A stretch of 64,000 nt of DNA from an uncultured Rikenellaceae bacterium. GTDB lineage: Bacteria; Bacteroidota; Bacteroidia; Bacteroidales; VadinHA17. Where the stretch lies: assembly GCA_964639725.1 (NCBI GenBank), contig CAZXFB010000020.1, forward strand, positions 2,384-66,383. The letters run 5' to 3'. A program made the position numbers and the translations under genes. Positions 8,652 to 31,304 of this stretch are shown here, piece by piece; within the stretch, counting starts at the first letter, position 1; the number at the start of each line of letters is the position of its first letter. The notes beneath the pieces were generated by a model. It was not told where the DNA came from. It ran no database searches and saw only the letters and a list, made by a program, of their open reading frames with translations.

Positions 8652-10088
8652 TTATAAACTTTTTACTTCGTTGACAAGGCTCTGGAGTGTACCCTTAGCG
8701 TCGCCAAACAGCATTCTTGTTTTATCGTTGAAGAAAAGCATATTTTCAATAGCTGCATAACCTTTCCCCATACCTCTTTTCATAACAATAATGTTTTTAG
8801 CATCACGTGCTTTAATAATTGGCATACCGTATATAGGACTTGAAGGATCATCCTCTGCAGCAGGATTAACAACATCATTAGCGCCGATTACAACAAGTAC
8901 ATCAGTGTTTGGAAGATCAGGATTGATCTCATCGCTTTCAATTAATTGCTCATAGGGTACATCTGCTTCAGCAAGTAAAACATTCATATGCCCAGGCATA
9001 CGTCCTGCAACAGGATGAATGGCATATTTCACTTCAACTCCCTTTTCTTCAAGAAGTTTATCCAGTTCATGACAAATATGTTGTGCCTGAGCAACTGCCA
9101 GCCCGTAGCCAGGAACTATTACTACTTTTTTGGAATAACTCAATAACACTGCAGAATCGGTAAGCGAGATTTCTTTCACTGAACCTCCGGCAACAATATT
9201 TGAGGCTCCACCTCCACCGAACACACCCACAATCACATTCAGAAGCGAACGGTTCATTGCACGACACATCAAAATCGTCAGGATAGTTCCGGCAGATCCA
9301 ACAAGTATTCCCCCGGTCAGCATTGCCTGGTTATTGTAAAGAAATCCTCCCATAGCTGCAGCAACACCGGTAAAAGAGTTCAGCAGCGATATAACCACTG
9401 GCATATCTGCACCTCCGATTGGCATTACAAACAGAACACCATATACCACAGAGATCACGAACATTATATATATCAAAGGAGTAAGCTCAGCACTGGCTTG
9501 AACATCGCGGGTCATGATATAGACAATGAAACCTATTAAAACACCTAAAATGGTCAGGTTCACATACTTCATTGCCTTAATACGCATATCGCCTATCCAT
9601 CCGTCAAGCTTACCAAATGCGATCATACTTCCTGCCCACGAAACTGTTCCGATCATAAGACCAAGTAGTATTGCAAGTACATGACCATTAGCCATTCCGC
9701 TTTTGGCAATAAGCTCAGGACTGACATGAGGGAATTCCATCATCGAGATTAGAGCTGCTGCTGCACCACCCATACCATTAAAGAAGGAAACAAGCTGAGG
9801 CATTGCTGTCATCTTGACCTTTTTGGCAATTACCCATCCGATAATTGTTCCAATTAATATCGCAGTTAATATTAAACCTATATTACCAATAGGCTTGCCA
9901 TCTTTCTGATGAAAAAGAATAGTTGCAATAATTGCGAGTACCATACCTGCCGCTGCAAGAATATTACCCTTTCGTGCTGTAAGAGGATGGCTCAGCATTT
10001 TGAGTCCTAGAATGAACAGTACAGATGCAATTATATAGGTTATTTCGAGTACTGATATTCCTGTGGTGAATTGAGATATATCGTTCAT
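8652..10088 (-). CDS. pntB: NAD(P) transhydrogenase subunit beta
   Basis: Multi-TM N-half plus a soluble C-terminal dIII domain (VIVPGYGLAVAQAQ, HPVAGRMPGHMNVLLAEA, GANDVVNP). Confidence 0.9.
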   Translation of the reverse strand: MNDISQFTTGISVLEITYIIASVLFILGLKMLSHPLTARKGNILAAAGMVLAIIATILFHQKDGKPIGNIGLILTAILIGTIIGWVIAKKVKMTAMPQLVSFFNGMGGAAAALISMMEFPHVSPELIAKSGMANGHVLAILLGLMIGTVSWAGSMIAFGKLDGWIGDMRIKAMKYVNLTILGVLIGFIVYIMTRDVQASAELTPLIYIMFVISVVYGVLFVMPIGGADMPVVISLLNSFTGVAAAMGGFLYNNQAMLTGGILVGSAGTILTILMCRAMNRSLLNVIVGVFGGGGASNIVAGGSVKEISLTDSAVLLSYSKKVVIVPGYGLAVAQAQHICHELDKLLEEKGVEVKYAIHPVAGRMPGHMNVLLAEADVPYEQLIESDEINPDLPNTDVLVVIGANDVVNPAAEDDPSSPIYGMPIIKARDAKNIIVMKRGMGKGYAAIENMLFFNDKTRMLFGDAKGTLQSLVNEVKSL

Positions 10089-10122
10089 TATGTTGATCTT
10101 TTGCGTTTAAACCTCAGATAAT

Positions 10123-10425
10123 TTATTTCTTCTTCTTGAACATTTCGAGCATTCTGTCGGTAACAACAAATCCGCCAACTACATTAAGTGTTCCCAGAAC
10201 GACTGCAAGAAAGCCTAAAATCACCGAACCCGTTGTTTCAGCATGTCCCATAACTATTATGGCACCAATTATTACAACACCATGTATGGCATTAGCACCC
10301 GACATAAGGGGAGTATGAAGAATTGCAGGTACATGGCTAATAACCTCAATACCTAAAAAAATTGAAAGGATAACAATGAATATTGCCTCTCTGTGTAATA
10401 AGAAAAAACCTAATATATTTTCCAT
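10123..10425 (-). CDS. pntA: NAD(P) transhydrogenase alpha subunit, membrane part (PntAB)
   Basis: A 100-aa, 3-TM protein with LMSGANAIHGVV, located between the pntAA-like and pntB genes. Confidence 0.85.
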   Translation of the reverse strand: MENILGFFLLHREAIFIVILSIFLGIEVISHVPAILHTPLMSGANAIHGVVIIGAIIVMGHAETTGSVILGFLAVVLGTLNVVGGFVVTDRMLEMFKKKK

Positions 10426-10433
10426 GAGTTGTC

Positions 10434-11564
10434 CTATTTGATATTTAGCATTTGTTTTACTCTCAGACTAATAAATTCTTTTGCATGTACAGCAGTTGTC
10501 CCATTTATTATGTCGTCCTGCATATTAAGTTGCAGGTTGCCCTCTTTATTCACCATTATCTTCAGGAGGTTAATAATATTGCAACCGAACATTTTGCTGG
10601 CATCAGTGGGCATATCGGACGGGTAATCAGATTTCCCGATAATATTTACTCCATTTACAATCAGATCTTTGCCATTTTGTGTCAGTTCACAGTTTCCACC
10701 TGTTGAAGCAGCAAGGTCAATAATTACAGAACCCGGTTTCATTGATGTTACTGTTTCTTTAAGTATGAGTAACGGAGCTTTTCTCCCGGGGATCTGCGCA
10801 GTAGCAATTACAACATCCGCTGCGATAGCCCTTTGCTGTATCAGTTCCTGCTGTTTCTTTTTAAACTCTTCTGTTTGTTCAACTGCATAACCTCCAGCTT
10901 GTGCATCTTCCTTTGCTCCTTCTACTTCAACAAATTTACCTCCAAGACTTTTAACCTCCTCTTTAACCGCAGATCTTACATCGAAGACCTCAACAATAGC
11001 TCCAAGTTTTCTGGCAATAGCAATAGCCTGTAATCCAGCCACTCCGGCTCCCAATATAAGTACTCTTGCAGGTTTAATAGTACCAGCTGCAGACATGAAC
11101 ATTGGGAAAAACCGTGGTAATAATGAAGCAGCAGTAAGAACAGCCTTGTAACCTGATACAGTGGCCATTGATGAAAGAATATCCATTGCCTGTGCCCTGG
11201 TTGTACGAGGAACAAGGTCAAGGGCCAGAACTGTTAATCCTCTCAAACGGGCTTTCTCAAGCCAACCGCTGTTCTCAACCGGATTAAGTACTGAACATAA
11301 TACTTGTCCTTCTTTGAATGAGTTAATATCGTCTTCCAGAGGCGGATTAACAGACAGAAGCATTTCTGCTGAGGATATAATTTCTTGTCTTTCAAGGATT
11401 CTGGCCCCTGCTGTCTGAAAATCCTTATCGGCAGCAAAAGCCTTTTCTCCGGCATGAAGCTCAACCAAAACCTCAATGCCCATCTTTTTTAATACGGCAG
11501 CTTCACCAGGAAGTATTGCTACCCTGTTTTCAGATCCCGTTTCTTTAAGGATGCCTAATATCAT
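10434..11564 (-). CDS. pntA: NAD(P) transhydrogenase alpha subunit, soluble dI part (alanine dehydrogenase-like)
   Basis: KETGSENRVA and the LGAGVAGLQAIAIARKLGA Rossmann motif. The start is taken at the internal Met MILGILKE (11564). Confidence 0.85.
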   Translation of the reverse strand: MILGILKETGSENRVAILPGEAAVLKKMGIEVLVELHAGEKAFAADKDFQTAGARILERQEIISSAEMLLSVNPPLEDDINSFKEGQVLCSVLNPVENSGWLEKARLRGLTVLALDLVPRTTRAQAMDILSSMATVSGYKAVLTAASLLPRFFPMFMSAAGTIKPARVLILGAGVAGLQAIAIARKLGAIVEVFDVRSAVKEEVKSLGGKFVEVEGAKEDAQAGGYAVEQTEEFKKKQQELIQQRAIAADVVIATAQIPGRKAPLLILKETVTSMKPGSVIIDLAASTGGNCELTQNGKDLIVNGVNIIGKSDYPSDMPTDASKMFGCNIINLLKIMVNKEGNLQLNMQDDIINGTTAVHAKEFISLRVKQMLNIK

Positions 11565-11648
11565 AAGATTTGTGTTTGGAGTAAAAATTTTGGCGAATAT
11601 ACTAAACAATAAATAATTTGCTGCTCTATGACTGGTAAATTTCGTTCA

Positions 11649-13945: not shown

Positions 13946-15256
13946 ATGAAGGGCAAAAGGATCTATACTCAACCTGCACATGAGGTTGAATGGCTAAAAC
14001 TTGATAATGCAGCAAAATTATTCCCGGCTATCATGTCGGATGAGTTAACTTCTGTATTCAGGATAACTGCATCCATTGACCAGCCAGTTAATTATGCAGC
14101 AATTAAAGAAGCTGTTGAAATTACCTCGAAGAGATATCCCTATTTTAACGTTTCATTGGGGAGTGGATTATTCTGGCATTATCTCGAATACAACACACTT
14201 GTTGCAAGAATTCAGACTGAAGAGAAGATACCATGTACTGCTTTTGCATCAAAAAGAAAAAATGAGCTTCTTTACCGGATTCTTGTAAAAGGTAACAGAA
14301 TATCAGTTGAATTCATTCATATACTTACAGATGGCAGTGGAGCTTTTGAATATCTCAAAACACTTCTTTACTCCTATTTCATGTTAACAGGGATCACTAT
14401 TAAACCTGCTGAAGGAATCATTTTACCCGGGACACCTGTTTTAAATGGAGAAAGGGAAGACAGCTATAACAGATTCTTTATCAAAAACCTTCCACCTCCA
14501 GTTAAGCTAACAAAAGCTTGGCATTTGCCTTTTCCTCTCAATGACAAACCCAGACTAAGAGTAATTACTTCTGAGATTCTCCTTCACCCTCTTCTTGAAG
14601 CAGTACAGAAATCCAAAGTAACAGTTACTGAGTATATTGTTGCAGTCTATCTTTTTTCGCTTCAGAATATTTATCTTGAAGAAAAACAGAGGGGAAAGAA
14701 GCAGAATAGAAAAGTTCTAAGGACTGAAGTTCCTGTAAATATGAGAAAAAAATATCCAAGTATTACAATGCGTAATTTCTCACTTTTTGTTATGCCTGAA
14801 ATTGACCTGAGACTTGGGTTTTATTCCTTTGAAGAAGTGTTAAAAATTGTGCATCATTTTTTACAGACAGGAACAGAAACAAAGCAGATAACCAGATTTC
14901 TGTCTCAAAATGTGAGTCATGAAAAGAGTTTGATTATACGACTTCTTCCTTTGTTTATCAAACGGTTGGTTATATCGACAGTGTATAAAAGGCTTGGATC
15001 AACAAGATGTTCCGGTATCATTACCAACCTTGGAGCAATAAAACTACCTCTGGAAATGGAAAATCATATTGACTCATTTGATCTTATTCCCACACCACCT
15101 AACAAACATGTAAAGGTTACATGCGGAATGGTTACATTTAAGAACAGAGTAAGGTTGACTTTCTGCAATATTTCTCAATCGCCGGCCTTGGAAAGACATT
15201 TTTTAAAACATCTTACTAATGCAGGCATACCTGTCAGAATTCTTAGTAACTTATAA
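13946..15256 (+). CDS. HxxxDG condensation/alcohol-acetyltransferase-like acyltransferase
   Basis: FIHILTDGSGAFEYL contains the HxxxDG catalytic motif of the condensation / WS-DGAT / AATase superfamily. Size is about 430 aa. Confidence 0.5.
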   Translation: MKGKRIYTQPAHEVEWLKLDNAAKLFPAIMSDELTSVFRITASIDQPVNYAAIKEAVEITSKRYPYFNVSLGSGLFWHYLEYNTLVARIQTEEKIPCTAFASKRKNELLYRILVKGNRISVEFIHILTDGSGAFEYLKTLLYSYFMLTGITIKPAEGIILPGTPVLNGEREDSYNRFFIKNLPPPVKLTKAWHLPFPLNDKPRLRVITSEILLHPLLEAVQKSKVTVTEYIVAVYLFSLQNIYLEEKQRGKKQNRKVLRTEVPVNMRKKYPSITMRNFSLFVMPEIDLRLGFYSFEEVLKIVHHFLQTGTETKQITRFLSQNVSHEKSLIIRLLPLFIKRLVISTVYKRLGSTRCSGIITNLGAIKLPLEMENHIDSFDLIPTPPNKHVKVTCGMVTFKNRVRLTFCNISQSPALERHFLKHLTNAGIPVRILSNL

Positions 15257-15266
15257 TTTGTTTGTC

Positions 15267-15971
15267 ATGAGTTTATGTTTAAATTGTGGAGTTGAACTTG
15301 GAGAAAATATTAAGCAATGCCCGCTTTGTGGCATTAATATAGGGGATTTGAAAAAAGAAGATTGGACCTCACCGAAAGAAACCTACCCATCCGACATTTT
15401 ACATATACATAAAGAAGAGATCCGAAGACACATCTGGGAACTTACAGGAGTAATAGCGTTTTCAGCAATAGCTGTTTGTACAATAGTTGATCTTGAAATT
15501 GAAAAAGGAATGAATTGGTCATTGTATGCAGATAGTGCAATCATTGGGACATGGATTTCTCTGTCACTTGTTCTATTGGCTTTCCGCAAATTCTTTATAA
15601 TAATCCCTGGATTGTTTATTACTATCTTGACAAGCTTGTTAATATTTGACCTGATATCACCTCCGTTAAATTGGTTCTTTCAAATCAGCCTTCCAATTAC
15701 AATTGGAGTCTTTATACTGATCAGTTGCATATATGTTTTGTGGAAAGTGGCTCATTTTAAAGGCTTTAACATTCTGGCTTTTGCTTTCCTGCTCTTATCC
15801 GGATTTTGTTTATTTACGGAAGTCTTCATCGATGGATTCCTCTATTCAAAAGTCAGCATACGGTGGTCTGCCATTGTTGCTGTTTCACTGCTTCCAATTG
15901 CCCTGATACTTCTCTTTGTCCATTACAGGATGAAAAAAGGAAAGAGACTTGATAGCTATTTTCACATTTAA
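15267..15971 (+). CDS. Zinc-ribbon membrane protein (about 5-6 TM), unknown function
   Basis: The N-terminal CLNCG-x13-CPLCG zinc ribbon is followed by hydrophobic helices. The start is taken at MSLCLNCG (15267), 11 nt after the upstream stop. Confidence 0.5.
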   Translation: MSLCLNCGVELGENIKQCPLCGINIGDLKKEDWTSPKETYPSDILHIHKEEIRRHIWELTGVIAFSAIAVCTIVDLEIEKGMNWSLYADSAIIGTWISLSLVLLAFRKFFIIIPGLFITILTSLLIFDLISPPLNWFFQISLPITIGVFILISCIYVLWKVAHFKGFNILAFAFLLLSGFCLFTEVFIDGFLYSKVSIRWSAIVAVSLLPIALILLFVHYRMKKGKRLDSYFHI

Positions 15972-16082: not shown

Positions 16083-16090
16083 TATCTTTG
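16083..16090 (+). promoter_or_regulatory. Candidate Bacteroidota -7 promoter box TAnnTTTG
   Basis: TATCTTTG lies 69 nt upstream of the ATG at 16159 and matches the TAnnTTTG consensus described for Bacteroides promoters. Confidence 0.3.
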
Positions 16091-16158
16091 CATAAAATTA
16101 TAACTCACTATTATGTATAGTCATTGTTGTGAAATAATAAACAGAAGAAACTAAATAT

Positions 16159-16503
16159 ATGATTATAAGCGAAATAATTAAATTAATTGATGGGCATGTG
16201 AAATGTTGCGAAGAGAAGCTTATGACAAATGTAGAGTATGCCTTTGCCTCAGATCTGATGAGTGATGTGCTCACAATTGAAAAGGAAAATATGTTATTAA
16301 TAACAGGTCTTGCTAATCTTCAGGCAATCAGAACTGCAGAGATGTCGGAAATCAATTGTATAATTTTTGGAAGAGATAAAAAAATTAACAGCGATATTAT
16401 TTCTCTGGCAAAAGAAAATGGCATGGTAATAATTGAAAGTCCATTGTCTGTTTTCCGTATATCCGGGTTGCTTTATAAAGCTGGTATAAAACCAATTTTC
16501 TAG
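16159..16503 (+). CDS. Small DRTGG-like domain protein (hydrogenase-cluster associated), copy 1
   Basis: 114 aa. It shares ASDLMSDVL, LLITG and a C-terminal F-x-I-x-G-L-L pattern with the paralog at 18297. I assigned the family from memory of similar clusters. Confidence 0.5.
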   Translation: MIISEIIKLIDGHVKCCEEKLMTNVEYAFASDLMSDVLTIEKENMLLITGLANLQAIRTAEMSEINCIIFGRDKKINSDIISLAKENGMVIIESPLSVFRISGLLYKAGIKPIF

Positions 16504-16506
16504 GTC

Positions 16507-16932
16507 ATGCAATTAAAGCATAAAATAGCGGGTGGCGATTTCGCAAATGCAGGTAATGTGGCTAGTTCGGTGAAAAAAATTCTTCGTCAGCTGAATATTG
16601 ACCATACTATTTCAAAACGAATTGTCATAGCACTTTATGAGGGGGAAGTGAATGTTGTTGCTCATGCATATTCCGGTAATGTAGATATAGATATTGATGA
16701 AGATAAAATAAAAATTACAATCACTGATAAGGGTCCCGGAATATCTGATATAAACAAAGCAATGGAGGAAGGTTTTTCAACAGCATCTCCACAGGTAAGA
16801 GAAATGGGATTTGGAGCCGGAATGGGGTTATCGAATATGAAAAAAAACAGTGATCAGATGAAGCTATCCAGTGAATCAGGGAAAGGTACTGTCGTAGAAA
16901 TACTCACTTATCTTAAACCACATGCAAACTGA
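16507..16932 (+). CDS. RsbW/SpoIIAB-like Ser/Thr kinase (stand-alone HATPase_c)
   Basis: N-box EVNVVAHAY, G1 DKGPGI, G2 GFGAGMGLSNM. It has no HisKA/DHp domain. Confidence 0.65.
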   Translation: MQLKHKIAGGDFANAGNVASSVKKILRQLNIDHTISKRIVIALYEGEVNVVAHAYSGNVDIDIDEDKIKITITDKGPGISDINKAMEEGFSTASPQVREMGFGAGMGLSNMKKNSDQMKLSSESGKGTVVEILTYLKPHAN

Positions 16933-18310
16933 TAATCAAAACAGGGATTTTCATCATGCATTAACAGTTCACGATGAGTTGTGTACCGGATGTACCCATT
17001 GTATGAGTGTCTGTCCAACAAAAGCCATAAGGATCAGGGAAGGAAAAGCCAGGATTATTGCCAACCGATGTGTCGACTGCGGCGAATGTTATAAAGCTTG
17101 TCCTGTTTCTGCTATCGGAGTTGAACAGGATGACCTTGAGATGATTTTTAATTTTCCGGTAAGAGTAATTCTGATTCCAAGTATTTTAATTGGTCAGTTC
17201 CCTGCAAAAATAACTGCCTCCAGCATATATAAAGCTCTTAAAGAAATTGGATTTACACACGTCTATCAGGTTGAGAATACTGTTGATATGGTATTGGATG
17301 CTTACAGGCAATGTGGGAAGGATCAGAAAATACGCCCCCTTATTTCTTCGTTCTGTCCTGCAATTGTTCGTCTTATTCAGGTCAGATACCCCTCTCTTGT
17401 CGGCAACATAATGAGAGTAAATCCTCCGATTGATATGTCGGCACTTTATTATAAGGAAAAACTCAAAGCATCCGGATTTCCGCAAGGTGATATCGGATTA
17501 TTCTATGCAACACCATGTGCCGCAAAAATTGCAGCGATAAAAAGTCCTGTTGGCGAAACAGAATCAGTTGTTACTGGAGTAATTAATATGAATTTTCTTT
17601 ATAACAGAATTCAAAAATACTTACAGAGAAAATATATAGAAATAGATGAGCCTCACACTGACAACCTTTTAAGTTCAAGAGGTATATTATGGAGCCTGAC
17701 AGGAGGGGAAGTTATCCATTCAAAAGAGAGAGCCCTTGCAATAGATGGAATCAGAAATGTTACTGAAATTCTTGAAAGCATTGAAAATGAAAAACTTCAT
17801 GGAATAGACTTTCTTGAGCTAAGAGCCTGCGATGAGAGTTGCGCGGGTGGCATTCTTATCTCAGCGAACAGATTTCTGACAGTTGAGAGATTAAAAAATC
17901 TTGCATCTGAGTATGAAGCCAGGGAGAATTATCAAAACTTTAAAATGACTGAAGGCTTTATTAATATCAAGGAACATAGTTTTCTGGGAAACATAGGGCC
18001 TCGCCCTATTGAAAAACTTGATGAAGATATCTCCATTGCCCTGAGAAAGATGGAAAGAAAACGCAGAATGATGTGCTTTCTACCAGGTTTCGATTGTGGC
18101 GGCTGTGGGGCACCTGATTGCCAGACCCTCTCAGAAGATATTGTTCAGGGCAATGCACAGATCTCGCATTGTGTCTTTATTCAGCAGCAGATGATAAAAC
18201 AAAACCTTTTAGATCATGAGCATGCTTTTCGAATAACCGAAAATATCTGGGGACATGAAAGACTTGAAAAAAACTGTAATAAAATTGGAGCAGAAGATGA
18301 AAATAGCTGA
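16922..18310 (+). CDS. [FeFe]-hydrogenase-like putative sensory protein (2x[4Fe-4S] + H-domain paralog + C-terminal FeS domain)
   Basis: CTGCTHCMSVCP and CVDCGECYKACP. The H-cluster motif equivalents are SSFCPAIV, ATPCAAKIAA and ELRACDESCAGG. The C-terminal CFLPGFDCGGCGAPDC is an RnfB-type FeS motif. Confidence 0.75.
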   Translation: MQTDNQNRDFHHALTVHDELCTGCTHCMSVCPTKAIRIREGKARIIANRCVDCGECYKACPVSAIGVEQDDLEMIFNFPVRVILIPSILIGQFPAKITASSIYKALKEIGFTHVYQVENTVDMVLDAYRQCGKDQKIRPLISSFCPAIVRLIQVRYPSLVGNIMRVNPPIDMSALYYKEKLKASGFPQGDIGLFYATPCAAKIAAIKSPVGETESVVTGVINMNFLYNRIQKYLQRKYIEIDEPHTDNLLSSRGILWSLTGGEVIHSKERALAIDGIRNVTEILESIENEKLHGIDFLELRACDESCAGGILISANRFLTVERLKNLASEYEARENYQNFKMTEGFINIKEHSFLGNIGPRPIEKLDEDISIALRKMERKRRMMCFLPGFDCGGCGAPDCQTLSEDIVQGNAQISHCVFIQQQMIKQNLLDHEHAFRITENIWGHERLEKNCNKIGAEDENS

Positions 18311-18635
18311 TTTGGTTTCAACTCTGAACCTGAAAATCATATCAGGACAGGAAGGAATAAATAACGAAATAAAAGGAGGTTATGTATCAGATCTGCTGAG
18401 TGATGTAATAGGTTCGGCAAGTGAAGGAATGGTGTGGATAACACTTCAGACTCACCAGAATATCGTGGCAGTTGCTTCACTTAAAGATCTGGCAGGAATA
18501 ATTCTTGTCAAGGGGTTACACCCTGATACAGATACAATAAATAAAAGTAATTTTGAAAACATCCCTGTATTATCAACAGATTCTGATACTTTCACTATTA
18601 CGGGTCGTTTATTTGAATTATTAAGAAAGGAATGA
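18297..18635 (+). CDS. Small DRTGG-like domain protein, copy 2
   Basis: The start is taken at MKIADL (18297), overlapping the upstream stop by 14 nt. VSDLLSDVI, WITLQ and the FTITGRLFELL pattern parallel copy 1. Confidence 0.5.
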   Translation: MKIADLVSTLNLKIISGQEGINNEIKGGYVSDLLSDVIGSASEGMVWITLQTHQNIVAVASLKDLAGIILVKGLHPDTDTINKSNFENIPVLSTDSDTFTITGRLFELLRKE

Positions 18636-19369
18636 ATACTTACCGGGCTGACCTGCATATACATACGTTACTATCCCCATGCGGCGACCTTGATATGAGC
18701 CCGGTAAATATTATTTCTGAAGCTGTCCTGAAAAAGCTTGATATAATCGGGATTACCGATCATAATACGACCAGGCATTGCAAAATCATCAGCAAACTAG
18801 CTGAAGCGAAAGGAATATTTGTAATGCAGGGTGCTGAAGTTACAACAAAAGAAGAGGTACATTGCCTTGTGTTCTTTGAAAATACTGATACACTTGACCT
18901 GTTTCAGATATTTCTTGATATAAATCTTCCTGATATAAAGAATTATCCTTCAATATTTGGAGACCAGATACAGGTTGACGAAGATGAAAATATCATTTAT
19001 ACCGAAGAGAAACTTCTTTTAAATGCCATAAATGTTTCATTTAAGGAACTGGAATCTTATGTGCATAAAAATAATGGCCTCATTATTCCGGCCCATGTCG
19101 ACAGGATGAAAAACAGCATTTATAGTCAATTAGGATTTCTTCCGCCGGATATAAAAGCCGACGCACTGGAGATTTCAAGACGCAGTACACCTGAAATATT
19201 TTCAGCATTGCATCAGGAGATCGATTCATTTCCTCTGGTAACAAATTCCGATTCCCATCTTCTTGCTCAGATAGGGTCAGCATTTACAAGTTTTTATCTT
19301 GATCATCCCTCTTGGTCAGAGATCAGGATGGCACTTAAGAATGAAAATAAAAGAATGATAATCAGATGA
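18632..19369 (+). CDS. PHP-domain phosphoesterase
   Basis: DLHIHTLLSPCGD, ITDHNT and PAHVDR are His/Asp metal-ligand motifs of the PHP superfamily. A 4-nt ATGA overlap joins it to the upstream gene. Confidence 0.75.
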   Translation: MNTYRADLHIHTLLSPCGDLDMSPVNIISEAVLKKLDIIGITDHNTTRHCKIISKLAEAKGIFVMQGAEVTTKEEVHCLVFFENTDTLDLFQIFLDINLPDIKNYPSIFGDQIQVDEDENIIYTEEKLLLNAINVSFKELESYVHKNNGLIIPAHVDRMKNSIYSQLGFLPPDIKADALEISRRSTPEIFSALHQEIDSFPLVTNSDSHLLAQIGSAFTSFYLDHPSWSEIRMALKNENKRMIIR

Positions 19370-19920
19370 AAACACTCGCTCTAAATATTCTTGATATTGC
19401 TCAGAATTCTATCAGGGCAAAGGCAACTCAAATAGTGATAAATATCTCAGAATCAAAAAAGGGGGATAATATGGAGATTAGCATAAATGACAATGGAATC
19501 GGAATAAATAAAAATATGATTAACAAGGTAACCGATCCGTTTATAACCAGCAGAAAAACCCGAAGAATCGGGATGGGACTCCCTCTTCTTAAATATCACG
19601 CAAAAATTGCAGGCGGGGATATGATAATCAAATCTCAGGAAAATAATGGGACCAGTGTTAATGCTACTTTCTCGCTCTCTCATTTTGACAGACAGCCTTT
19701 GGGTGATATAGCCGGAGTAATGACAATACTAATTGCTGCTAATCCAGATATATGCTTCCTATACTCCCATACAACAGATTTGGGAGAATACCGGTTCTCA
19801 TCCACAGAGACTAAAGAATTTCTTGAAGTCAATACATTGAATGATTATATCTTGCTCGATATGATAAAAAGTATGATAAATGAAAACCTCAGGGGAATTA
19901 GTGTATCAGATATGAATTAG
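19366..19920 (+). CDS. Stand-alone histidine-kinase-like ATPase (HATPase_c) protein
   Basis: N-box LDIAQNS, G1 NDNGIGI, G2 RIGMGLPLL. It has no DHp or receiver domain. A 4-nt overlap joins it to the PHP gene. Confidence 0.65.
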   Translation: MKTLALNILDIAQNSIRAKATQIVINISESKKGDNMEISINDNGIGINKNMINKVTDPFITSRKTRRIGMGLPLLKYHAKIAGGDMIIKSQENNGTSVNATFSLSHFDRQPLGDIAGVMTILIAANPDICFLYSHTTDLGEYRFSSTETKEFLEVNTLNDYILLDMIKSMINENLRGISVSDMN

Positions 19921-20016: not shown

Positions 20017-20418
20017 ATGTCAAAAATTATGTCTCTGGCGGATCTTAAAAAGAAACGCGAAGAATTAAAGGGCGGTCTGGACATCCGTATCAAGGCTATT
20101 GATCCTGAGAACCACGTACAAGTCAAGGTTGCTATGGCAACCTGTGGTATTGCTTCCGGGGCAAAAGCTGTAATGGAGTTCTTTCTTGAACAACTTCAGC
20201 GCAGAAATATTGAAGCTGTAGTTACCCAGACCGGGTGTATGGGATACTGTTATGCGGAACCTACTATTGAAGTAAAACTTCCGGGCCAGGATCCCGTAGT
20301 ATTTGGTTTTGTGGATCTAAAAAGGGCCGACCAGGTCATTGAAAAGTACATTAAGACGGGTGAACTGATTGATGGTATCATCCCGGTGAATTATGAAACT
20401 ATTGACTTAAACGAATAA
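20017..20418 (+). CDS. Thioredoxin-like [2Fe-2S] ferredoxin (HndB-like accessory hydrogenase subunit)
   Basis: MATCGIASGA ... TGCMGYCYAEP is a thioredoxin-like ferredoxin Cys pattern. The gene lies immediately upstream of the NuoF-like subunit. Confidence 0.7.
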   Translation: MSKIMSLADLKKKREELKGGLDIRIKAIDPENHVQVKVAMATCGIASGAKAVMEFFLEQLQRRNIEAVVTQTGCMGYCYAEPTIEVKLPGQDPVVFGFVDLKRADQVIEKYIKTGELIDGIIPVNYETIDLNE

Positions 20419-20429
20419 GGAGGATAAAT

Positions 20430-22223
20430 ATGTCAAAATACAGTATGCATCTTCTGGTTTGTGGTGGCACAGGCTGTCACGCTTCTGAAAGTGATGCTAT
20501 TGTCTGCAATTTGAGAGATGAACTGGAAGCAAAAGGCTTGCAGGAGACAGTTCAGGTTATATTGACCGGATGTTTTGGTTTTTGTGAAAAAGGACCAATC
20601 GTCAAAGTAATGCCAGACAATACATTTTATGTTCAGGTAAAACCTGAGGACGCCCAGATAATTGTTGAGGAGCATGTTATAAAGGGAAGAAAAGTCACTA
20701 AACTTTTATATCATGATCCTATTAATAAAAAACCTGTTGAGGATTCCAAACACATGGGATTCTATAAAAAACAGATCAGGATCGCACTAAGAAACTGTGG
20801 TTTCATCAACCCTGAAAATATTGATGAATATATTGCCCGTGATGGATACCAGGCATTGGGTAAAGTTCTTACAGAAATGACGCCCGATGAAGTAATAAGG
20901 GAAATAAAAGAATCGGGACAAAGAGGCCGTGGGGGTGGTGGATTCCCAACAGGTCTTAAATGGGAGATTGCAAGAAGAAACGTTTCGGATGAGAAATATG
21001 TAGTATGTAATGCCGATGAAGGTGATCCCGGCGCATTTATGGACCGCTCGGTCCTTGAGGGCGATCCTCACTCTGTACTTGAAGCTATGGCTATTTGCGG
21101 TTATAGTATCGGTGCCGGTAATGGTCTCATTTACATTCGTGCTGAATACCCGCTTGCCATTGAACGGTTAAAAATAGCCATAAAACAGGCAATGGAAAAT
21201 GGTTTGCTTGGAGATAACATACTTGGAACAGGTTTCAATTTTGATATTACTATCCGATATGGGGCCGGAGCGTTTGTATGCGGAGAGGAGACTGCCCTGA
21301 TACACTCTATGGAAGGTCACAGGGGAGAACCTACGGTTAAACCACCATATCCTGCTGAATCCGGTTATCGAAACAAACCTACAAACGTCAATAATGTTGA
21401 AACATTTGCTTCCATTCCGGCAATAATTCTTAAAGGTGCCAAATGGTACAGCAGTATCGGAACAGCAAAGTCAAAAGGAACAAAAGTTTTTGCCCTTGCA
21501 GGAAAGGTTAATAATGTAGGTCTGATAGAAGTTCCAATGGGAACTACACTTCGGGAAGTTATCTTTGAGATTGGTGGTGGTATTAGACATGGTAAAAAAT
21601 TCAAAGGGGTGCAAACTGGTGGCCCGTCAGGCGGTTGTATGACAGAAAAACATCTTGACACTCCGATTGATTTCGATAATCTTATTGCAGCAGGTTCAAT
21701 GATGGGTTCAGGTGCAATGATAGTTCTGGATGAAGATGACTGTATGGTTTCAATGGCGAAATATTTTCTTGAGTTTACTGTTGAAGAATCATGTGGTAAA
21801 TGTGCCCCTTGCCGAATTGGAAATAAACGTCTACATGAACTACTTGGCCATATATGTGACGGAAAAGGTACTCTTGAGGATCTTGACAGGCTGAAGAACA
21901 TGAGTCTTGTTATAAAAGATACAGCTCTTTGCGGATTGGGACAGACATCCCCTAACCCGGTTCTCTCAATGATGGAAAACTTCAGGGAGGAATACGTAAC
22001 CCATGTAACTGCCAAAAAGTGTCCGGCTGGTCAATGCCGGAGCCTTATGGAATATGTTATTAATCCCGAGAATTGCGTTGGGTGTACCGCCTGCGCAAGA
22101 GTATGCCCTGTTAATGCTATATCAGGGGAAAGAAAAGAGGTGCATCTTATTAATCCAGCAATTTGCATTAAATGCGGTGCATGTATGGAGAAATGTAAGT
22201 TTGATGCAATTTTTATCAGATAA
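20430..22223 (+). CDS. hydB: [FeFe]-hydrogenase NuoF-like flavoprotein subunit (HydB/HndC)
   Basis: The N-terminal [2Fe-2S] domain is LVCGGTGCHA..GCFGFCEKGP. GRGGGGFPTGLKW is the FMN site. CGKCAPCR is the N3-type cluster. C-terminal CVGCTACARVCP and CIKCGACMEKC motifs follow. Confidence 0.9.
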   Translation: MSKYSMHLLVCGGTGCHASESDAIVCNLRDELEAKGLQETVQVILTGCFGFCEKGPIVKVMPDNTFYVQVKPEDAQIIVEEHVIKGRKVTKLLYHDPINKKPVEDSKHMGFYKKQIRIALRNCGFINPENIDEYIARDGYQALGKVLTEMTPDEVIREIKESGQRGRGGGGFPTGLKWEIARRNVSDEKYVVCNADEGDPGAFMDRSVLEGDPHSVLEAMAICGYSIGAGNGLIYIRAEYPLAIERLKIAIKQAMENGLLGDNILGTGFNFDITIRYGAGAFVCGEETALIHSMEGHRGEPTVKPPYPAESGYRNKPTNVNNVETFASIPAIILKGAKWYSSIGTAKSKGTKVFALAGKVNNVGLIEVPMGTTLREVIFEIGGGIRHGKKFKGVQTGGPSGGCMTEKHLDTPIDFDNLIAAGSMMGSGAMIVLDEDDCMVSMAKYFLEFTVEESCGKCAPCRIGNKRLHELLGHICDGKGTLEDLDRLKNMSLVIKDTALCGLGQTSPNPVLSMMENFREEYVTHVTAKKCPAGQCRSLMEYVINPENCVGCTACARVCPVNAISGERKEVHLINPAICIKCGACMEKCKFDAIFIR

Positions 22224-22234
22224 TAAGAAAAGTA

Positions 22235-24013
22235 ATGGAGAATATAAAGCTTACTATAGATAATAAGGAGATTGAAGTACCAAAGGGTACAACAATATAT
22301 AAAGCAGCAAAAGAACTGGGTATTGATATCCCGACACTATGTTATATGCATTTGCACGACCTTAACATAGAAAATAAGCCTGCAGGATGCAGGATTTGTG
22401 TTGCTGAAGTTGATGGTCGTCGTAACCTCGCTCCCACCTGTTCAACAAATTGCGAACAGGGAATGGTCGTAAAAACTCACACACCCAGAGTATTAAATGC
22501 CCGACGTACTGTAATGGAGTTTATACTTTCAGACCATCCCAAAGATTGTCTTGTGTGCTCTAAATCAGGAAATTGCGACCTTCAAAACATGGCTCATCGG
22601 CTTGGGATCAGAGAGATACCTGGAGCAGAATTTGCTGCAGTCTCAACTTACCGGAAAGATACATCTCCCTCAATTATCAGGGATCTGGATAAATGTATCA
22701 TGTGCCGCAGATGTGAGACAATGTGTAATGACGTTCAGACTGTAGGTGCCCTGTCAGCCATAAACCGTGGTTTTATGGCAACAGTTGCTCCTGCATTCGA
22801 ACAAAATCTCGAACATTCCACCTGTACATATTGTGGACAATGTGTTGCTGTATGTCCAACAGGCGCATTAACTGAGGTCAATCATGTGCCAAATGTTCTC
22901 AGAGCTCTTGTTGATCCGACCAAAACAGTTGTTGTGCAGACAGCTCCTGCAGTTCGTGTTGCGCTGGGAGAAGAGTTCGGACTTGAACCGGGAACAATTG
23001 TGACTGGAAAAATGGTAGCTGCTTTGCGGGCTCTTGGTTTTGATTATGTATTTGATACGGATTTTGCTGCTGACCTGACAATTATGGAAGAAGGGACAGA
23101 GTTACTCGGAAGGTTGAAACGTCATCTTGACGGAGATAAAACAGCCAGGATTCCGATATTGACATCATGTTGTCCCGGCTGGGTAAACTTTTTTGAGGAG
23201 TATTTTCCCGATCTCAAGGACGTACCATCAACTTCAAAATCGCCTCAGCAAATGTTCGGTGCTATAGCAAAAACATATTTTGCGGATAAGATTGGTATAA
23301 ACCGTAAAGATATGGTCGTTGTTTCCATAATGCCATGCCTTGCCAAAAAATATGAGTGCCAGAGAGAGGAATTTTCTGTTGATAATAATCCTGATGTTGA
23401 TTTTTCAATTTCAACCAGGGAATTAGCTTCATTTATCAAGCAGGCGAATATTGATATTAAAAACCTGCATGATGAGGAGTTTGACTCCCCGCTTGGTGAA
23501 TCGACCGGTGCCGGAGTTATTTTTGGCGCAACCGGCGGAGTAATTGAAGCTGCATCCCGTACTGCTTATGAGCTATTCACAGGAAAAAAACTTGAGAGGT
23601 TGGACTTCACGGAACTAAGGGGTATGGAAGGTGTACGTGAAGCTACAATTGACTTTAATGGCACACCTGTCAGGATTGGAATAGCACATGGCCTTGGTAA
23701 CGCAAGAAAGCTTCTTAATGATGTAAGATCAGGACAATCATTATTTCATGCAATTGAAGTTATGGCATGCCCCGGAGGTTGTATCGGAGGTGGTGGACAA
23801 CCACTGCATCATGGTGACTCGGGGATAATAAAGTCAAGAGCTGCAGCAATTTATGCTGAAGACAGAAAGAAACCCCTGAGGAAATCTCATGAAAATCCTT
23901 TCATAATTAAACTGTATGAGGAGTTCCTGGGAGAACCTAATAGCGAGAAAGCTCATCATTTGCTTCATACGAAGTATTTTGACAAAAAGAAAAAGATCAT
24001 AATTAAACAATAG
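22235..24013 (+). CDS. hydA: [FeFe]-hydrogenase catalytic subunit (HydA/HndD)
   Basis: All three H-cluster motifs are present: TSCCPGW, MPCLAKKYE and EVMACPGGCIGGGGQP. There is an N-terminal [2Fe-2S], a His-ligated cluster (HPKDCLVCSKSGNC) and 2x[4Fe-4S]. Confidence 0.92.
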   Translation: MENIKLTIDNKEIEVPKGTTIYKAAKELGIDIPTLCYMHLHDLNIENKPAGCRICVAEVDGRRNLAPTCSTNCEQGMVVKTHTPRVLNARRTVMEFILSDHPKDCLVCSKSGNCDLQNMAHRLGIREIPGAEFAAVSTYRKDTSPSIIRDLDKCIMCRRCETMCNDVQTVGALSAINRGFMATVAPAFEQNLEHSTCTYCGQCVAVCPTGALTEVNHVPNVLRALVDPTKTVVVQTAPAVRVALGEEFGLEPGTIVTGKMVAALRALGFDYVFDTDFAADLTIMEEGTELLGRLKRHLDGDKTARIPILTSCCPGWVNFFEEYFPDLKDVPSTSKSPQQMFGAIAKTYFADKIGINRKDMVVVSIMPCLAKKYECQREEFSVDNNPDVDFSISTRELASFIKQANIDIKNLHDEEFDSPLGESTGAGVIFGATGGVIEAASRTAYELFTGKKLERLDFTELRGMEGVREATIDFNGTPVRIGIAHGLGNARKLLNDVRSGQSLFHAIEVMACPGGCIGGGGQPLHHGDSGIIKSRAAAIYAEDRKKPLRKSHENPFIIKLYEEFLGEPNSEKAHHLLHTKYFDKKKKIIIKQ

Positions 24014-24049: not shown

Positions 24050-24532
24050 ATGTCAAGTATAAAAATTGAATTAAGGAACGAGGATGTAGATTTTATAAAA
24101 AAAGTATGTTCCTCATTTAATAATGATCCTCAGGAACTTATTAATGTCCTGCACAGTTGTCAGGAACATTTTGGTTATCTGCCTGCCGAAGTACAGGAAG
24201 TTGTGTCTGATCAGCTAACCTTACCGGTTGCAAAAATCTATGGAGTAGTGACATTCTACTCATTCTTCTCCATGACGCCAAAGGGAAAACATCCTATAAG
24301 CATATGTATGGGAACAGCCTGTTATGTAAGGGGTGGTGAGAAAGTTCTGGATGAATTTAAAAAGGAACTTGGTATACAGGTAGGTCAGGTCACAAAAGAT
24401 AATAAATTTTCACTTTCAAGCCTTCGTTGTGTTGGTGCATGTGGATTAGCGCCGGTTGTTCTTGTAGGTGACAAAACCTACGGGAGAGTAGCTCCGGACG
24501 ATGTGAAAAATATATTAAAAGAATACGAATAA
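24050..24532 (+). CDS. hydC: [FeFe]-hydrogenase NuoE-like [2Fe-2S] subunit (HydC/HndA)
   Basis: CMGTACYVRG and CVGACGLAPV form the NuoE-type Cys pattern. Size is 160 aa. Confidence 0.85.
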   Translation: MSSIKIELRNEDVDFIKKVCSSFNNDPQELINVLHSCQEHFGYLPAEVQEVVSDQLTLPVAKIYGVVTFYSFFSMTPKGKHPISICMGTACYVRGGEKVLDEFKKELGIQVGQVTKDNKFSLSSLRCVGACGLAPVVLVGDKTYGRVAPDDVKNILKEYE

Positions 24533-24563
24533 AAAGTTTCTAATTGGTTTCTGGGTTTTATAA

Positions 24564-24598
24564 GACCGGGGCTATGGTTTGTCCCGGTTTTATTTTTC
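24564..24598 (+). terminator. Rho-independent terminator between the convergent hydrogenase and cytochrome operons
   Basis: ACCGGG (24565-24570) pairs with CCCGGT (24583-24588) and is followed by TTTTATTTTT. Confidence 0.6.
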
Positions 24599-24627: not shown

Positions 24628-26247
24628 TCAAAACCTCTTTCGTACCTGCAGATACAACCTGTTATATTTGTCCCTTTCCTCAAATGTTCCCTCATAACTA
24701 ACTGATAATGATAAGTTTTTTACGGGTTGCCATGATAAACTCACCTCCCCTACATCCTGATGTATATCGAGAATGTTTTCAGGAAGAGTGTAATCAACAT
24801 AACGATAACCAATACCTGTTTGAACCTTACTTCTGAAAAAATCTCGGGAAAAGTTTAAACTGAATATCTTTCCGTTAATATAACCCGACAATAAGTATGT
24901 CGCAGAAATGGTTGAAGAGATGTTTAATGCCGGAATCTGGTTGTAAGTAAGATAACCATTGATATTTTCAGAACGATGAGGGTCCGATTTCAGAAAGCGA
25001 TAACCAGTCTGCAAACCAAACATTATATCCCTGGTAATCCGATAGTTGACCTGAACCCGAAAACCCTGTCTCAATTCATTTTCCAGAATGCGGTCAACGA
25101 ATGTCTTGTATGTCTCATAATATATAATATTTTTCCTCGCGTCATAAGACCCGTAAAGAGTAAGTTTCTTTCCTGGTTTATAACTCAGAGATAAGTAAAG
25201 ACCTGTCAGGTTCAGAGTATTCTGAGCCTTACTTGTTAATGAATCTCCTTTAAGCTGATAAAGATCTGCTTCTAAAGTGGTGAAAAAGGAAAGGTTATTA
25301 ATTAATGAATTTGAATGTTGAAAATAAATGAATCGACGGTCGGTTTTTGAATTATTGGTTTGCTGAATTAGAGCCAGCGAACTCTCGCTATAGCTGTTCT
25401 GTGTTTTAGTATTATAGGCAACATAGGTACCATATTGAAGCAGCCTAATATTAAAGCTATAATTCAAGTAATCAGGCCTTGTACCAATAAATGCACCCAT
25501 GGAAAACCTGTTTAAGGATTTCTCAAATTGCAAACCGTCAATTGCTCCGACACTTGATATTCTCGGGTTTATCTTTCGTCCCAGACTGATCTGAGTAGTT
25601 TTATTAAGGTCATACTTTACGGCCAGGCTAAAAATCTTGAGAGCATTAAAAACGTTGTTTTTTACCTCTTCCCATTCACCTGCCTTGTGCCTGAACGATA
25701 AATAGCTCTCAAGGGAGAGCTTTGAATTAGCGATATTCCGGGCATCTAATGAAAATGTATAGCGAAACCTCTGTGATTTACTTGTATTTGTACCTGAATT
25801 ATCGGAATAGGAATTCACTGAAACTGTTCCCCTGATTTTTTGTTTTAAGCCATCAGCGTGTGTGGGCATATTGGTTGAATCAATAGAGGCAGCAGGTATC
25901 TTTTCAACCTTCGCTATACTTTCGATAATCTCATTATCAGATTTCCTATCAGTGACTTTCACTCTTGCGATAATAAGATCAGCAACTAAAAAACTTTTCA
26001 TGGATAGAGGTGAGCAGACACACGAAGATGAGGATAAATTCTTTACCATAAGTGCAGGTAAAAAGTTACCATCTGACTGTGTAAAAAGTGTATCCCCTGG
26101 TGATATTCCTTTTGTAGATTTAAATTTAACATAAATATTCTGGGAACTGACAAATGATACTTGTCCGGACAAACTTTCCAATAATGTCTGACCAGGCAAT
26201 TCAACACATGAAATATATAGCAGAAATATCAGAATGGTTTTTCTCAT
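24628..26247 (-). CDS. Putative outer-membrane beta-barrel protein (last gene of the cytochrome operon)
   Basis: Signal peptide MRKTILIFLLYIS... Long stretches have alternating hydrophobic/polar residues rich in Y, S, N and G. The C-terminal residue is Phe (..YLQVRKRF). The family was not recognised. Confidence 0.55.
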   Translation of the reverse strand: MRKTILIFLLYISCVELPGQTLLESLSGQVSFVSSQNIYVKFKSTKGISPGDTLFTQSDGNFLPALMVKNLSSSSCVCSPLSMKSFLVADLIIARVKVTDRKSDNEIIESIAKVEKIPAASIDSTNMPTHADGLKQKIRGTVSVNSYSDNSGTNTSKSQRFRYTFSLDARNIANSKLSLESYLSFRHKAGEWEEVKNNVFNALKIFSLAVKYDLNKTTQISLGRKINPRISSVGAIDGLQFEKSLNRFSMGAFIGTRPDYLNYSFNIRLLQYGTYVAYNTKTQNSYSESSLALIQQTNNSKTDRRFIYFQHSNSLINNLSFFTTLEADLYQLKGDSLTSKAQNTLNLTGLYLSLSYKPGKKLTLYGSYDARKNIIYYETYKTFVDRILENELRQGFRVQVNYRITRDIMFGLQTGYRFLKSDPHRSENINGYLTYNQIPALNISSTISATYLLSGYINGKIFSLNFSRDFFRSKVQTGIGYRYVDYTLPENILDIHQDVGEVSLSWQPVKNLSLSVSYEGTFEERDKYNRLYLQVRKRF

Positions 26248-26256
26248 AAAATAAAT

Positions 26257-29075: not shown

Positions 29076-29100
29076 ACATTAATGAATATTTGACCATTAC

Positions 29101-30432: not shown

Positions 30433-30434
30433 AG

Positions 30435-31304
30435 TTAAAAAATCCAGCGGTAACCGAAAAGAATTGTAACACCGACATGAATCACCATAATTATCAACAT
30501 CACAAGAGCAAAGGGCAGATGGGCAACATGCCAGTATTTAAATAAATTCTGCATAGAATCCAGTCTTTCAATTCTGCGGTTTAATAATATATCTTCTTTT
30601 ACCAGGTTAAGTATTTTTTTATAATCTGAACCGGATAATTTATTTTTTTTTAGAACACTTTTAACTAACCTGATAGATCTTTGGTCATCCAGATGCTTTT
30701 CTATATATCGGAGTATCGGATTCTTCCTGTATAATACAACCTTCTTTTTTATAGAATCAAGCAAAATATTGTAACTCTCCTCATTAAGATTGTATGTATT
30801 TCTAACTATTACGGCAATATCACTTTTCATTCCCTTCACTTCATTTAAACTTAGTTCTCTTCCTTCTATTGATCGAGGTATCTGAATATAAATGAAGCGT
30901 CCAATAATTCCACTCAAAAAAACTGCAACCATACTCCAGAAACTAATAGCAACCAATCCTCCGAATTTATATGAAGTATGAAAAAGAATAAGAATGGGAC
31001 CAAGTGTGCAAAGAAAAATATGAACTTCGAGCCAATGCTTCAGCAACCCTATCCTGGACAAAAAACGGTATCTTTTTCGCGCCATATATGAACCCATCCC
31101 GATGATCATCAAAAAAGACCCAAGTATCCCAATGCCGTGCCCGATAGTCCCACTAGGTTTAAGCAATAAATGATCAGGATGGAAGACCCTTTCTTCAAGC
31201 CCGGATCTGTAATATGACAATCCTCTGTAAAAAAGGAAAATCGCAGTTATAATCACAATTGAAACCAATATGACTAAAAATATTCTGTGAGTAATTCGGG
31301 ACAT
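30435..31304 (-). CDS. Integral membrane protein, candidate di-heme b-type cytochrome (unknown family)
   Basis: About 5 TM helices. H95-x13-H109 and H262-x13-H276 lie inside predicted helices. A long K/R-rich loop spans roughly residues 145-255. Confidence 0.5.
   Translation of the reverse strand: MSRITHRIFLVILVSIVIITAIFLFYRGLSYYRSGLEERVFHPDHLLLKPSGTIGHGIGILGSFLMIIGMGSYMARKRYRFLSRIGLLKHWLEVHIFLCTLGPILILFHTSYKFGGLVAISFWSMVAVFLSGIIGRFIYIQIPRSIEGRELSLNEVKGMKSDIAVIVRNTYNLNEESYNILLDSIKKKVVLYRKNPILRYIEKHLDDQRSIRLVKSVLKKNKLSGSDYKKILNLVKEDILLNRRIERLDSMQNLFKYWHVAHLPFALVMLIIMVIHVGVTILFGYRWIF

Follow-up and report, generated by a model that had tools for sequence, protein, structure and literature searches.

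Putative sensory [FeFe]-hydrogenases (HydS) of group D, also designated M2e, are known from Caldicellulosiruptor and Thermoanaerobacter, and the M2e enzymes are encoded upstream of trimeric bifurcating hydrogenases with "protein kinases" in between (PMC3561251). HydDB includes a "histidine kinase-linked" putative sensory class (PMC5037454), and the group D/M2e loci possibly represent this class, C1. The signature criteria of the group were defined by Land et al. (PMC8163306). TamHydS, the group D protein of Thermoanaerobacter mathranii, binds an H-cluster and displays a high H2 affinity and a low turnover, and a sensor role was proposed; among group D, H-cluster binding and a response to H2 have been shown for TamHydS only (PMC8163306). 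Furthermore, a 2026 paper on group D HydS reported that H2 does not reduce the C-terminal cluster and called for the interaction partners to be identified (PMC13104023), and the sensing mechanism is described as unresolved (PMC8163306, PMC13104023). In the gut, the rumen, sediments, and digesters, it is electron-bifurcating hydrogenases that determine the H2 balance of fermentative communities. The present analysis concerns a six-gene module, g1 to g6 (16159-19920, plus strand), in a 64,000-nucleotide (nt) stretch, hereafter the window, of contig CAZXFB010000020.1 (assembly GCA_964639725.1) from an uncultured Rikenellaceae bacterium. A first-pass annotation of the window had read it as an H2- or redox-sensing module of unresolved mechanism, which is what the two papers state for group D HydS. 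The module is one more ordinary instance of the group D/M2e sensory-hydrogenase loci, which are already known and are common in Bacteroidota. The comparative analysis points to candidate HydS partners, namely the pair of DRTGG proteins, the RsbW-like ATPase, the PHP enzyme, and the HydE-like ATPase.

Gene order and the HydS signature

The six genes are plus-strand open reading frames (ORFs), and their positions and Pfam matches bear out the gene number, order, and domain assignments of the first-pass annotation. Briefly, g1 (D1; 16159-16503) encodes a single-domain DRTGG protein of 114 aa, g2 (W; 16507-16932) a 141-aa RsbW/SpoIIAB-like GHKL ATPase, g3 (S; 16922-18310) the 462-aa putative HydS, g4 (D2; 18297-18635) a second DRTGG protein of 112 aa, g5 (P; 18632-19369) a 245-aa PHP-family metal-dependent phosphoesterase, and g6 (E; 19366-19920) a 184-aa HydE-like ATPase. 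The five successive junctions measure +3, -11, -14, -4, and -4 nt, and a gap of 96 nt, in which a terminator scan found no terminator-like site, separates the end of g6 from the next gene start (20017); the spacings and the terminator-free gap stand as first read. The same strand continues with hydD-like, hydB, hydA, and hydC genes, and an intrinsic terminator-like hairpin of 13 pairs followed by a T-run (24560-24593, plus strand) lies 3' of hydC and ends the ten-gene unit. The arrangement of g1-g6 is far beyond chance because the ten-gene order, with near-identical gene sizes, is repeated in Bacteroidota relatives, where HydS is 73% identical, and because the gene set recurs across phyla. In this genome, g1-g6 are probably co-transcribed with the HydABC(D)-type electron-bifurcating hydrogenase genes.

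The g3 protein carries the complete sequence signature of group D (M2e) HydS. Pfam identifies two Fer4 domains, Fe_hyd_lg_C (81.4 bits), and the FeS domain PF04060 (41.7 bits). The N-terminus comprises two [4Fe-4S] ferredoxin motifs with invariant cysteines (C21, C24, C27, C31, C50, C53, C56, and C60), and in the H-domain C145, C199, C303, and C307 align with the L1/L2/L3 H-cluster cysteines, all four of which are kept in 142/142 distinct HydS family members collected. The proton-relay position, C299 in CpI, is F144 in the window; across the same 142 members it is Ala in 79, Phe in 37, Tyr in 8, Ser in 5, and Thr in 3, and never Cys, so that the window holds the second residue rather than the commoner Ala. 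The Met353 position is T197 (Thr in 72 and Ser in 61 members), and the C-terminus, matched by PF04060, bears a C392x2C395x4C400x16C417 motif (Cx2Cx4Cx16C). No PAS domain was matched in g3 by Pfam. The same HydS architecture and active-site substitutions are found in the described group D/M2e loci (TamHydS; Athe_1292, Csac_1857, Teth39_1463), which, like the window module, lie upstream of a trimeric or tetrameric bifurcating hydrogenase and have kinase-like neighbours (PMC8163306, PMC3561251, PMC5037454).

Group C sensors (T. maritima HydS, Ruminococcus albus HydS, and Thermoanaerobacterium hfsABCD) share with the window the C-terminal Cx2Cx4Cx16C motif, the absence of a proton relay, and the tie to hydrogenase genes and phospho-signalling-type proteins. 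By contrast, the HydS of group C carries a PAS domain by fusion and is accompanied by a PP2C Ser/Thr phosphatase (PMC8163306, PMC11837493), whereas the window has DRTGG proteins and a PHP protein in the corresponding places, and Pfam found neither a PAS nor a PP2C domain in g1-g6. The first-pass comparison with hfs- and Thermotoga-type loci has therefore to be given up, since those are group C (PMC11837493, PMC8163306) and the window module belongs to group D/M2e. Nor is the occurrence in Bacteroidota noteworthy, as had been supposed: homologous loci are found in many Bacteroidales metagenome-assembled genomes (MAGs), Draconibacterium mangrovi, Prolixibacteraceae, Rikenellaceae, and Muribaculaceae. 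The window copy is a clean and complete Bacteroidota example with nothing unusual added.

By subunit make-up (A3/A6-type HydA, NuoF-like HydB, and NuoE-like HydC), the downstream plus-strand genes are of the electron-bifurcating HydABC type. The catalytic subunit HydA (22235-24013, 592 aa) was assigned by Pfam and by NF040763, the model of NADH-dependent [FeFe]-hydrogenases of group A6 (897.5 bits, cut-off 765). HydB (20430-22223, 597 aa) is a NuoF-like flavoprotein subunit with Complex1_51K, NADH_4Fe-4S, Fer4, and N-terminal 2Fe-2S_thioredx domains, and HydC (24050-24532, 160 aa) is a NuoE-like [2Fe-2S] subunit (2Fe-2S_thioredx, 173.6 bits; NF005722, 141.9 bits against a cut-off of 141). The small HydD-like protein (20017-20418, 133 aa) has a thioredoxin-like [2Fe-2S] fold, with a weak Pfam match to 2Fe-2S_thioredx and an NF041613 match (4.9e-8) under the cut-off. 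Its family keeps three of the four thioredoxin-like [2Fe-2S] cysteines (VgMATCGIA...QTGC.G.C), and its own cluster may be unusual or absent altogether; a cluster-free protein would fit the Acetobacterium woodii description, in which no cofactor site was found.

Conservation of the gene set across phyla

Conservation was surveyed in two samples that together comprise approximately 200 loci from more than ten phyla. Sample 1 was obtained with a degenerate DNA motif for PxxDCGxCGAPxC, which yielded 120 8-kb blocks from species-level genomes, and sample 2 comprises 80 metagenome loci anchored on g6. ORFs were classified with hidden Markov models from the window's ten proteins and were started at the first possible start codon, so that overlaps are possibly slightly overestimated. 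HydS homologues form 305 clusters (50% identity) at E <= 1e-30, and more than 100 clusters are 71-82% identical to the window copy, many of them from Bacteroidales MAGs. Sample 1 consists in its majority of Bacillota and also covers Spirochaetota, Zixibacteria, Aminicenantes, Chloroflexota, Desulfobacterota, Armatimonadota, Acidobacteriota, Acholeplasmataceae, and Bacteroidota, the last represented by Bacteroidales, Rikenellaceae, Muribaculaceae, Prolixibacteraceae, and Draconibacterium mangrovi. A Methanoculleus locus (L015) was rejected as a false positive that matched the FeS motif only, and an apparent D1-W-S triple fusion (L052) as an ORF-calling artefact.

Among the sample 1 loci with enough flank, the RsbW-like gene adjoins HydS upstream in 87/96, a DRTGG gene lies upstream of HydS in 81/89, a second DRTGG gene adjoins HydS downstream in 75/94, and a PHP gene follows downstream in 74/81; the order D1-W-S-D2-P is thus conserved in 80-91% of evaluable loci. 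The gene after PHP is a g6-type ATPase in 31 loci, hydC in 13, and another gene in 25. The position of hydC differs with taxonomy: in Bacillota-labelled loci it precedes the cassette or follows PHP, and in Bacteroidota it comes last. In many Clostridia, hydC and hydE flank the inserted cassette. The Clostridia order, D1-W-S-D2-P-(C)-E-d-B-A, agrees with the reported Caldicellulosiruptor locus-tag spacing; the window locus differs from these group D loci in that hydC comes at the end (E-d-B-A-C), an order shared with other Bacteroidota, and in that PHP and hydE adjoin without a gap. The HydD-like gene is always in the E-d-B arrangement in both samples.

The gene set falls into two conserved triads, DRTGG1-RsbW-like-HydS (D1-W-S) and DRTGG2-PHP-HATPase (D2-P-E). 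This structure is revealed by loci with the permuted order, since D2-P-E precedes D1-W-S in six loci of sample 2 (L148, L161, L164, L168, L172, L208). In L168 and L172 the hydrogenase genes lie on the other strand, and the same holds for L150 and L159, whose triads are set apart by another gene; the D2-P-E triad is also found without hydrogenase genes in the available flank (sample 2). Median spacings are -1 nt for D1-W, 2 nt for S-D2, -1 nt for D2-P, -4 nt for P-E (85 pairs), and 3 nt for C-E (46 pairs). These junction statistics support a composite module of two translationally coupled triads, in which g6 is coupled either to PHP or to hydC. The median P-hydC spacing is 251 nt and never <= 20 nt, and this gap marks a transcription-unit boundary; in Caldicellulosiruptor bescii the gap bears a Rex site, and the hydC-E-D-B-A genes have a Rex site of their own (PMC6391272). 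Where the layout diverges, g6 remains next to hydC-d-B-A, from which it had first been concluded that g6 lies outside the cassette; this view was dropped after the g6-anchored sample showed D2-P-E to be recurrent.

Natural fusions provide sequence evidence that HydS may contact the DRTGG protein and the RsbW-like ATPase. Long family members include four HydS-DRTGG fusions (P0255, P0271, P0329, P0363), two DRTGG-HydS fusions (P0295, P0297), and a HATPase_c_2-HydS fusion (P0303), and RsbW-like-HydS fusions are also found in two Spirochaetota genome loci. Most fusions are repeated in independent assemblies, including a 1.5-Mb contig and the record "bacterium 210820-DFI.6.37"; P0255, P0271, and P0329 are among the repeated ones, and P0363 and P0297 are single-member clusters. 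In the HydS-DRTGG fusions, DRTGG follows the C-terminal cluster motif, which is the position of PAS in group C sensors (PMC8163306). A literature search for DRTGG, PHP, and hydrogenase together found no paper, and the six-protein composition, the two-triad organisation, the fusions, and the likeness of g6 to the HydE of sensor-less operons were not found in the searched literature.

Two variations of the layout were observed. Five loci (L131, L132, L135, L084, L041) have a second HydB-HydA pair immediately upstream of DRTGG1, so that the sensor set is flanked by two hydrogenase sets (B A / D1 W S D2 P E d B A C). Ruminococcus-type loci (L128, L129) have an extra gene of ~120 aa without a Pfam match between HydS and DRTGG2 and a PHP-hydC gap of ~900 nt.

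Protein families and readings of the mechanism

The gene order D1-W-S mirrors rsbV-rsbW-sigB and spoIIAA-spoIIAB-sigF. As in those partner-switch modules, a small dimeric GHKL Ser-kinase-like protein with conserved ATP boxes is encoded between a small single-domain protein and a presumed partner; unlike them, the window module has no STAS antagonist, sigma factor, or PP2C. The absence of STAS, sigma factor, receiver, and DNA-binding domains from the six proteins, which the first-pass annotation had pointed out, was confirmed with Pfam. In gene order, the DRTGG protein takes the position of the antagonist. Both g1 (28.9 bits) and g4 (35.3 bits) exceed the gathering cut-off of DRTGG (Pfam PF07085; 25.2 bits), and they are distant paralogues with 21% ungapped identity. 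The g1 family motif, taken from conservation in 86 homologues, is SDLMSDVL...LITGLxNxQxxRTAEM...R-x-K, and D32, S35, D36, and V37 in SDxMSDV are invariant in common between g1 and g4. The SDxMSDV motif is specific to the g1/g4 family, in that the family profile matches the solved DRTGG structures (3L2B/3L31 and 2IOJ) over the C-terminal half only.

The ATP-binding boxes of both ATPases are >90% conserved. In g2 (HATPase_c, 47.7 bits; HATPase_c_2, 44.3 bits against a cut-off of 27.4), these are the N (YExExN..H), G1 (DxGPGI), and G2 (GFGAGMGLPN) boxes. The best PDB matches of g2 are SpoIIAB and RsbW (anti-sigma F factor 1TIL, E=1.2e-6), and its best NCBIfam model, TIGR01925, scores 62.5 bits against a cut-off of 135, with the RsbW models at 32-33 bits against 145-155. 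In the AlphaFold2 (AF2) model of g6 (HATPase_c, 54.6 bits; pLDDT 87.7), residues 1-105 form a HATPase_c domain of the Bergerat fold, and behind it comes a small alpha/beta domain, in which an H-x-D-x-x-P-L-G-D motif is conserved. Foldseek matches it over the full length to the MutL/PMS2 N-terminal domain and TopoVI-B (TMq 0.5-0.59), whereas histidine-kinase CA domains match the N-terminal ~105 residues only. Pfam found HATPase_c-type domains only and no DHp/HisKA domain in g2 or g6, the g6 model has no helical hairpin, and no cognate receiver is encoded in the locus. "Histidine kinase" is, on these domain assignments, a misnomer for both proteins because neither has a DHp/HisKA domain.

The g6 protein appears to behave as the HydE of hydC-E-D-B-A operons, to which it is likened by gene position: homologues occupy this position in 46 C-E and 96 E-d pairs, and HydE-like genes are also found in C-E-d-B-A operons without a sensor among the g6-anchored loci. 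In the A. woodii operon hydC-hydE-hydD-hydB-hydA1, an orphan HATPase-like gene is followed, as in the window, by a small cofactor-poor protein, the two being compared by gene position (PMC3315566). The A. woodii order C-E-d-B-A is found in many loci, whereas the window g6 follows PHP and is coupled to it, not to hydC.

In g5 (PHP, 30.3 bits against a cut-off of 26.4; PHP_C, 27.3 bits), all metal ligands are kept, and D7, H9, H11, C17, D43, H44, E69, H77, H155, D207, and H209 are family invariants. The family profile matches EndoQ (3.6e-14), 3E0F, RNase AM (7UG9), and the Cv1693 pAp phosphatase (2YB1) best, and by sequence g5 resembles nucleotide and nucleic-acid phosphoesterases, not the known PHP protein phosphatases. 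The first-pass annotation had spoken of two kinase-like ATPases and one phosphoesterase, and roles as two kinases and a phosphatase are not established, given the absence of DHp/HisKA, the GHL-like g6, and the enzymes to which the PHP protein is close. The invariant Cys17 (LSPC) directly follows the HxH metal-binding motif and is specific to the hydrogenase-associated PHP family; it might let the enzyme respond to redox state or to an additional metal.

On balance, we lean towards an H2-sensing, ATP-driven protein switch that acts post-translationally on HydABC. HydS would bind H2 at its intact H-cluster site and, having no relay cysteine, would report H2 or redox state instead of turning over fast. 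It may be complexed with g2 and the DRTGG proteins g1 and g4, with DRTGG2 in place of the PAS domain of group C. An H2-driven conformational change would alter the ATP-dependent binding by g2 or its Ser/Thr phosphorylation of the DRTGG proteins, in a manner similar to RsbV-RsbW, with the invariant Ser35 of SDxMSDV as the candidate acceptor, and g5 would reset the DRTGG modification. This phospho-Ser/PHP-phosphatase step is the doubtful part of the scheme, owing to the affinities of the PHP protein with nucleotide phosphoesterases and of g6 with GHL ATPases. The signal could reach the enzyme via the HydE-like g6, which travels with DRTGG2-PHP or with hydC-hydD-hydB-hydA, and g6 would then act post-translationally, not via transcription, on how active HydABC is, in which direction it runs, or how it is assembled. 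A post-translational output is suggested by the absence of a DNA-binding domain and of a conserved regulator after PHP, the insertion of the cassette between hydC and hydE, the sensor-less HydE operons, and the separate Rex site of C. bescii. If true, the module would sense a gas and switch the activity of an enzyme, not its transcription. Only tentatively can it be called a new kind of device, in which DRTGG replaces STAS, PHP replaces PP2C, an H2 sensor replaces the sigma factor, and the output passes via a HydE ATPase to a bifurcating hydrogenase. The [NiFe] system HoxBC-HoxJ-HoxA embodies the same concept, i.e., a low-activity hydrogenase as the H2 sensor controlling an energy-converting hydrogenase, but its proteins are unrelated, and its true histidine kinase and its DNA-binding response regulator have no counterpart in the module.

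Several points weigh against a post-translational protein switch. The roles of g1, g2, g4, g5, and g6 in phosphotransfer, binding, and phenotype are deduced from their sequences, and to our knowledge DRTGG domains are not known as phospho-acceptors. CpsB/YwqE or protein-phosphatase names are absent among the 11 PDB matches of the g5 profile (E <= 0.01), and g6 as a whole is nearer to the MutL/TopoVI-B (GHL) ATPases than to kinases, though its TM-scores are only 0.5-0.59. Approximately one third of the cassettes in the 8-kb blocks have no adjacent hydrogenase gene, so that the target need not always be HydABC, and a sigma factor or regulator could be encoded elsewhere. The cassettes without an adjacent hydrogenase gene favour a transcriptional partner switch, in which g2 is an anti-sigma or anti-regulator protein, HydS and the DRTGG proteins form the input or antagonist side, and a remote sigma or transcription factor controls hyd and fermentation genes. 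This reading also draws on SpoIIAB and RsbW as the nearest solved relatives of g2, on its best NCBIfam model, and on the R. albus and Thermoanaerobacterium group C sensors, which appear to affect the expression of other hydrogenases (PMC11837493). We nevertheless regard it as unlikely. No conserved STAS, sigma factor, or DNA-binding gene was found in or next to the ~200 loci. Where hydrogenase genes are absent, no conserved gene, including no conserved regulator, was found after PHP; single loci there have an apparent MarR- or LysR-type regulator, recognised from N-terminal sequences only, or peptidase- and tRNA synthetase-like genes. Furthermore, g2 is far under the SpoIIAB/RsbW equivalog cut-offs, its fusion to HydS in several lineages suggests that HydS, not a sigma factor, is its partner, and the module spans phyla with very different sigma repertoires.

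The affinities of g5 and g6 also bear on a nucleotide-signal module, which we consider less probable still. Here, the PHP protein would hydrolyse either a nucleotide (pAp, or a dinucleotide in cyclic or linear form) or a nucleotidyl modification, as on an AMPylated protein, the DRTGG proteins would be small-ligand receptors, the GHKL proteins would be ATP-operated clamps rather than kinases, and H2 status would be converted into a nucleotide-dependent assembly state of the hydrogenase. The PHP profile, with its matches to nucleotide enzymes and not to protein phosphatases, the MutL/TopoVI-B-like fold over the full length of g6, and the occurrence of DRTGG domains in nucleotide-regulated CBS-pyrophosphatases and in Pta are consistent with it. 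However, in CBS-pyrophosphatases nucleotides bind the CBS domains and not DRTGG; no conserved nucleotide cyclase or synthetase was found in the locus in either sample, and the likeness of g6 to GHL enzymes is modest. Finally, a role of the six proteins in maturing, assembling, or repairing HydABC without signalling, in which HydS would serve as a scaffold or carry the H-cluster and g6 would act like a chaperone ATPase, agrees with the probable co-transcription with the structural genes and with the suggestion of the A. woodii genome authors that HydE "may be involved in assembly or signalling" (PMC3315566), but is very improbable, because HydABC is active from organisms or constructs without the cassette (A. 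woodii, T. maritima; PMC3315566, PMC3003633), TamHydS kinetics are sensor-like (PMC8163306), and metallocentre assembly offers no known precedent for RsbW-like, DRTGG, or PHP proteins.

Gene boundaries and neighbouring genes

The start codons that give the -11 and -14 overlaps are right because the invariant g3 cluster cysteines C21, C24, and C27 come before the alternative start that one public gene call (435 aa) uses and because almost all g4 homologues, close relatives in the homologue search, are 112 aa long. In the public gene calls on L005, the sequence of which is identical to the window, HydS is cut to 435 aa and loses three ligands of the first [4Fe-4S] cluster, and the PHP protein is cut to 224 aa and loses the HxH motif; these short calls are annotation errors that hide overlapping starts. 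Upstream of g1 by 68 nt lies a possible Bacteroidota -7 promoter box on weak evidence (TATCTTTG, of the form TAnnTTTG; 16084..16091, plus strand); a pattern search found no match to the full -33/-7 pattern upstream of g1 and no enrichment of it in the window.

On the upstream side, PntAB NAD(P) transhydrogenase genes (8652-11609, minus strand) are a conserved neighbour of the hydrogenase locus within this lineage (L001-L005), and their proximity may reflect a functional link of NADH/NADPH balance to the bifurcating hydrogenase. Between a DPP-IV-like peptidase gene and the module lie genes for a 436-aa protein without a Pfam match and a DUF6320 protein (13946-15971, plus strand), in the place of which L001-L004 have M14 and M28 peptidases. 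On the downstream side, five genes (24628-31304, minus strand) stand between the hydC terminator and a radical-SAM gene (31434-33266), encoding a 539-aa protein without a Pfam match, two multihaem c-type cytochromes (413 and 532 aa), an oxidoreductase with Fer4 and Pyr_redox_3 domains, and a 289-aa protein. This stretch of a Bacteroidota genome is possibly an island that resembles extracellular electron transfer; the relatives L001-L004 are without it and have the radical-SAM gene directly after hydC, and L006 has its first two genes.

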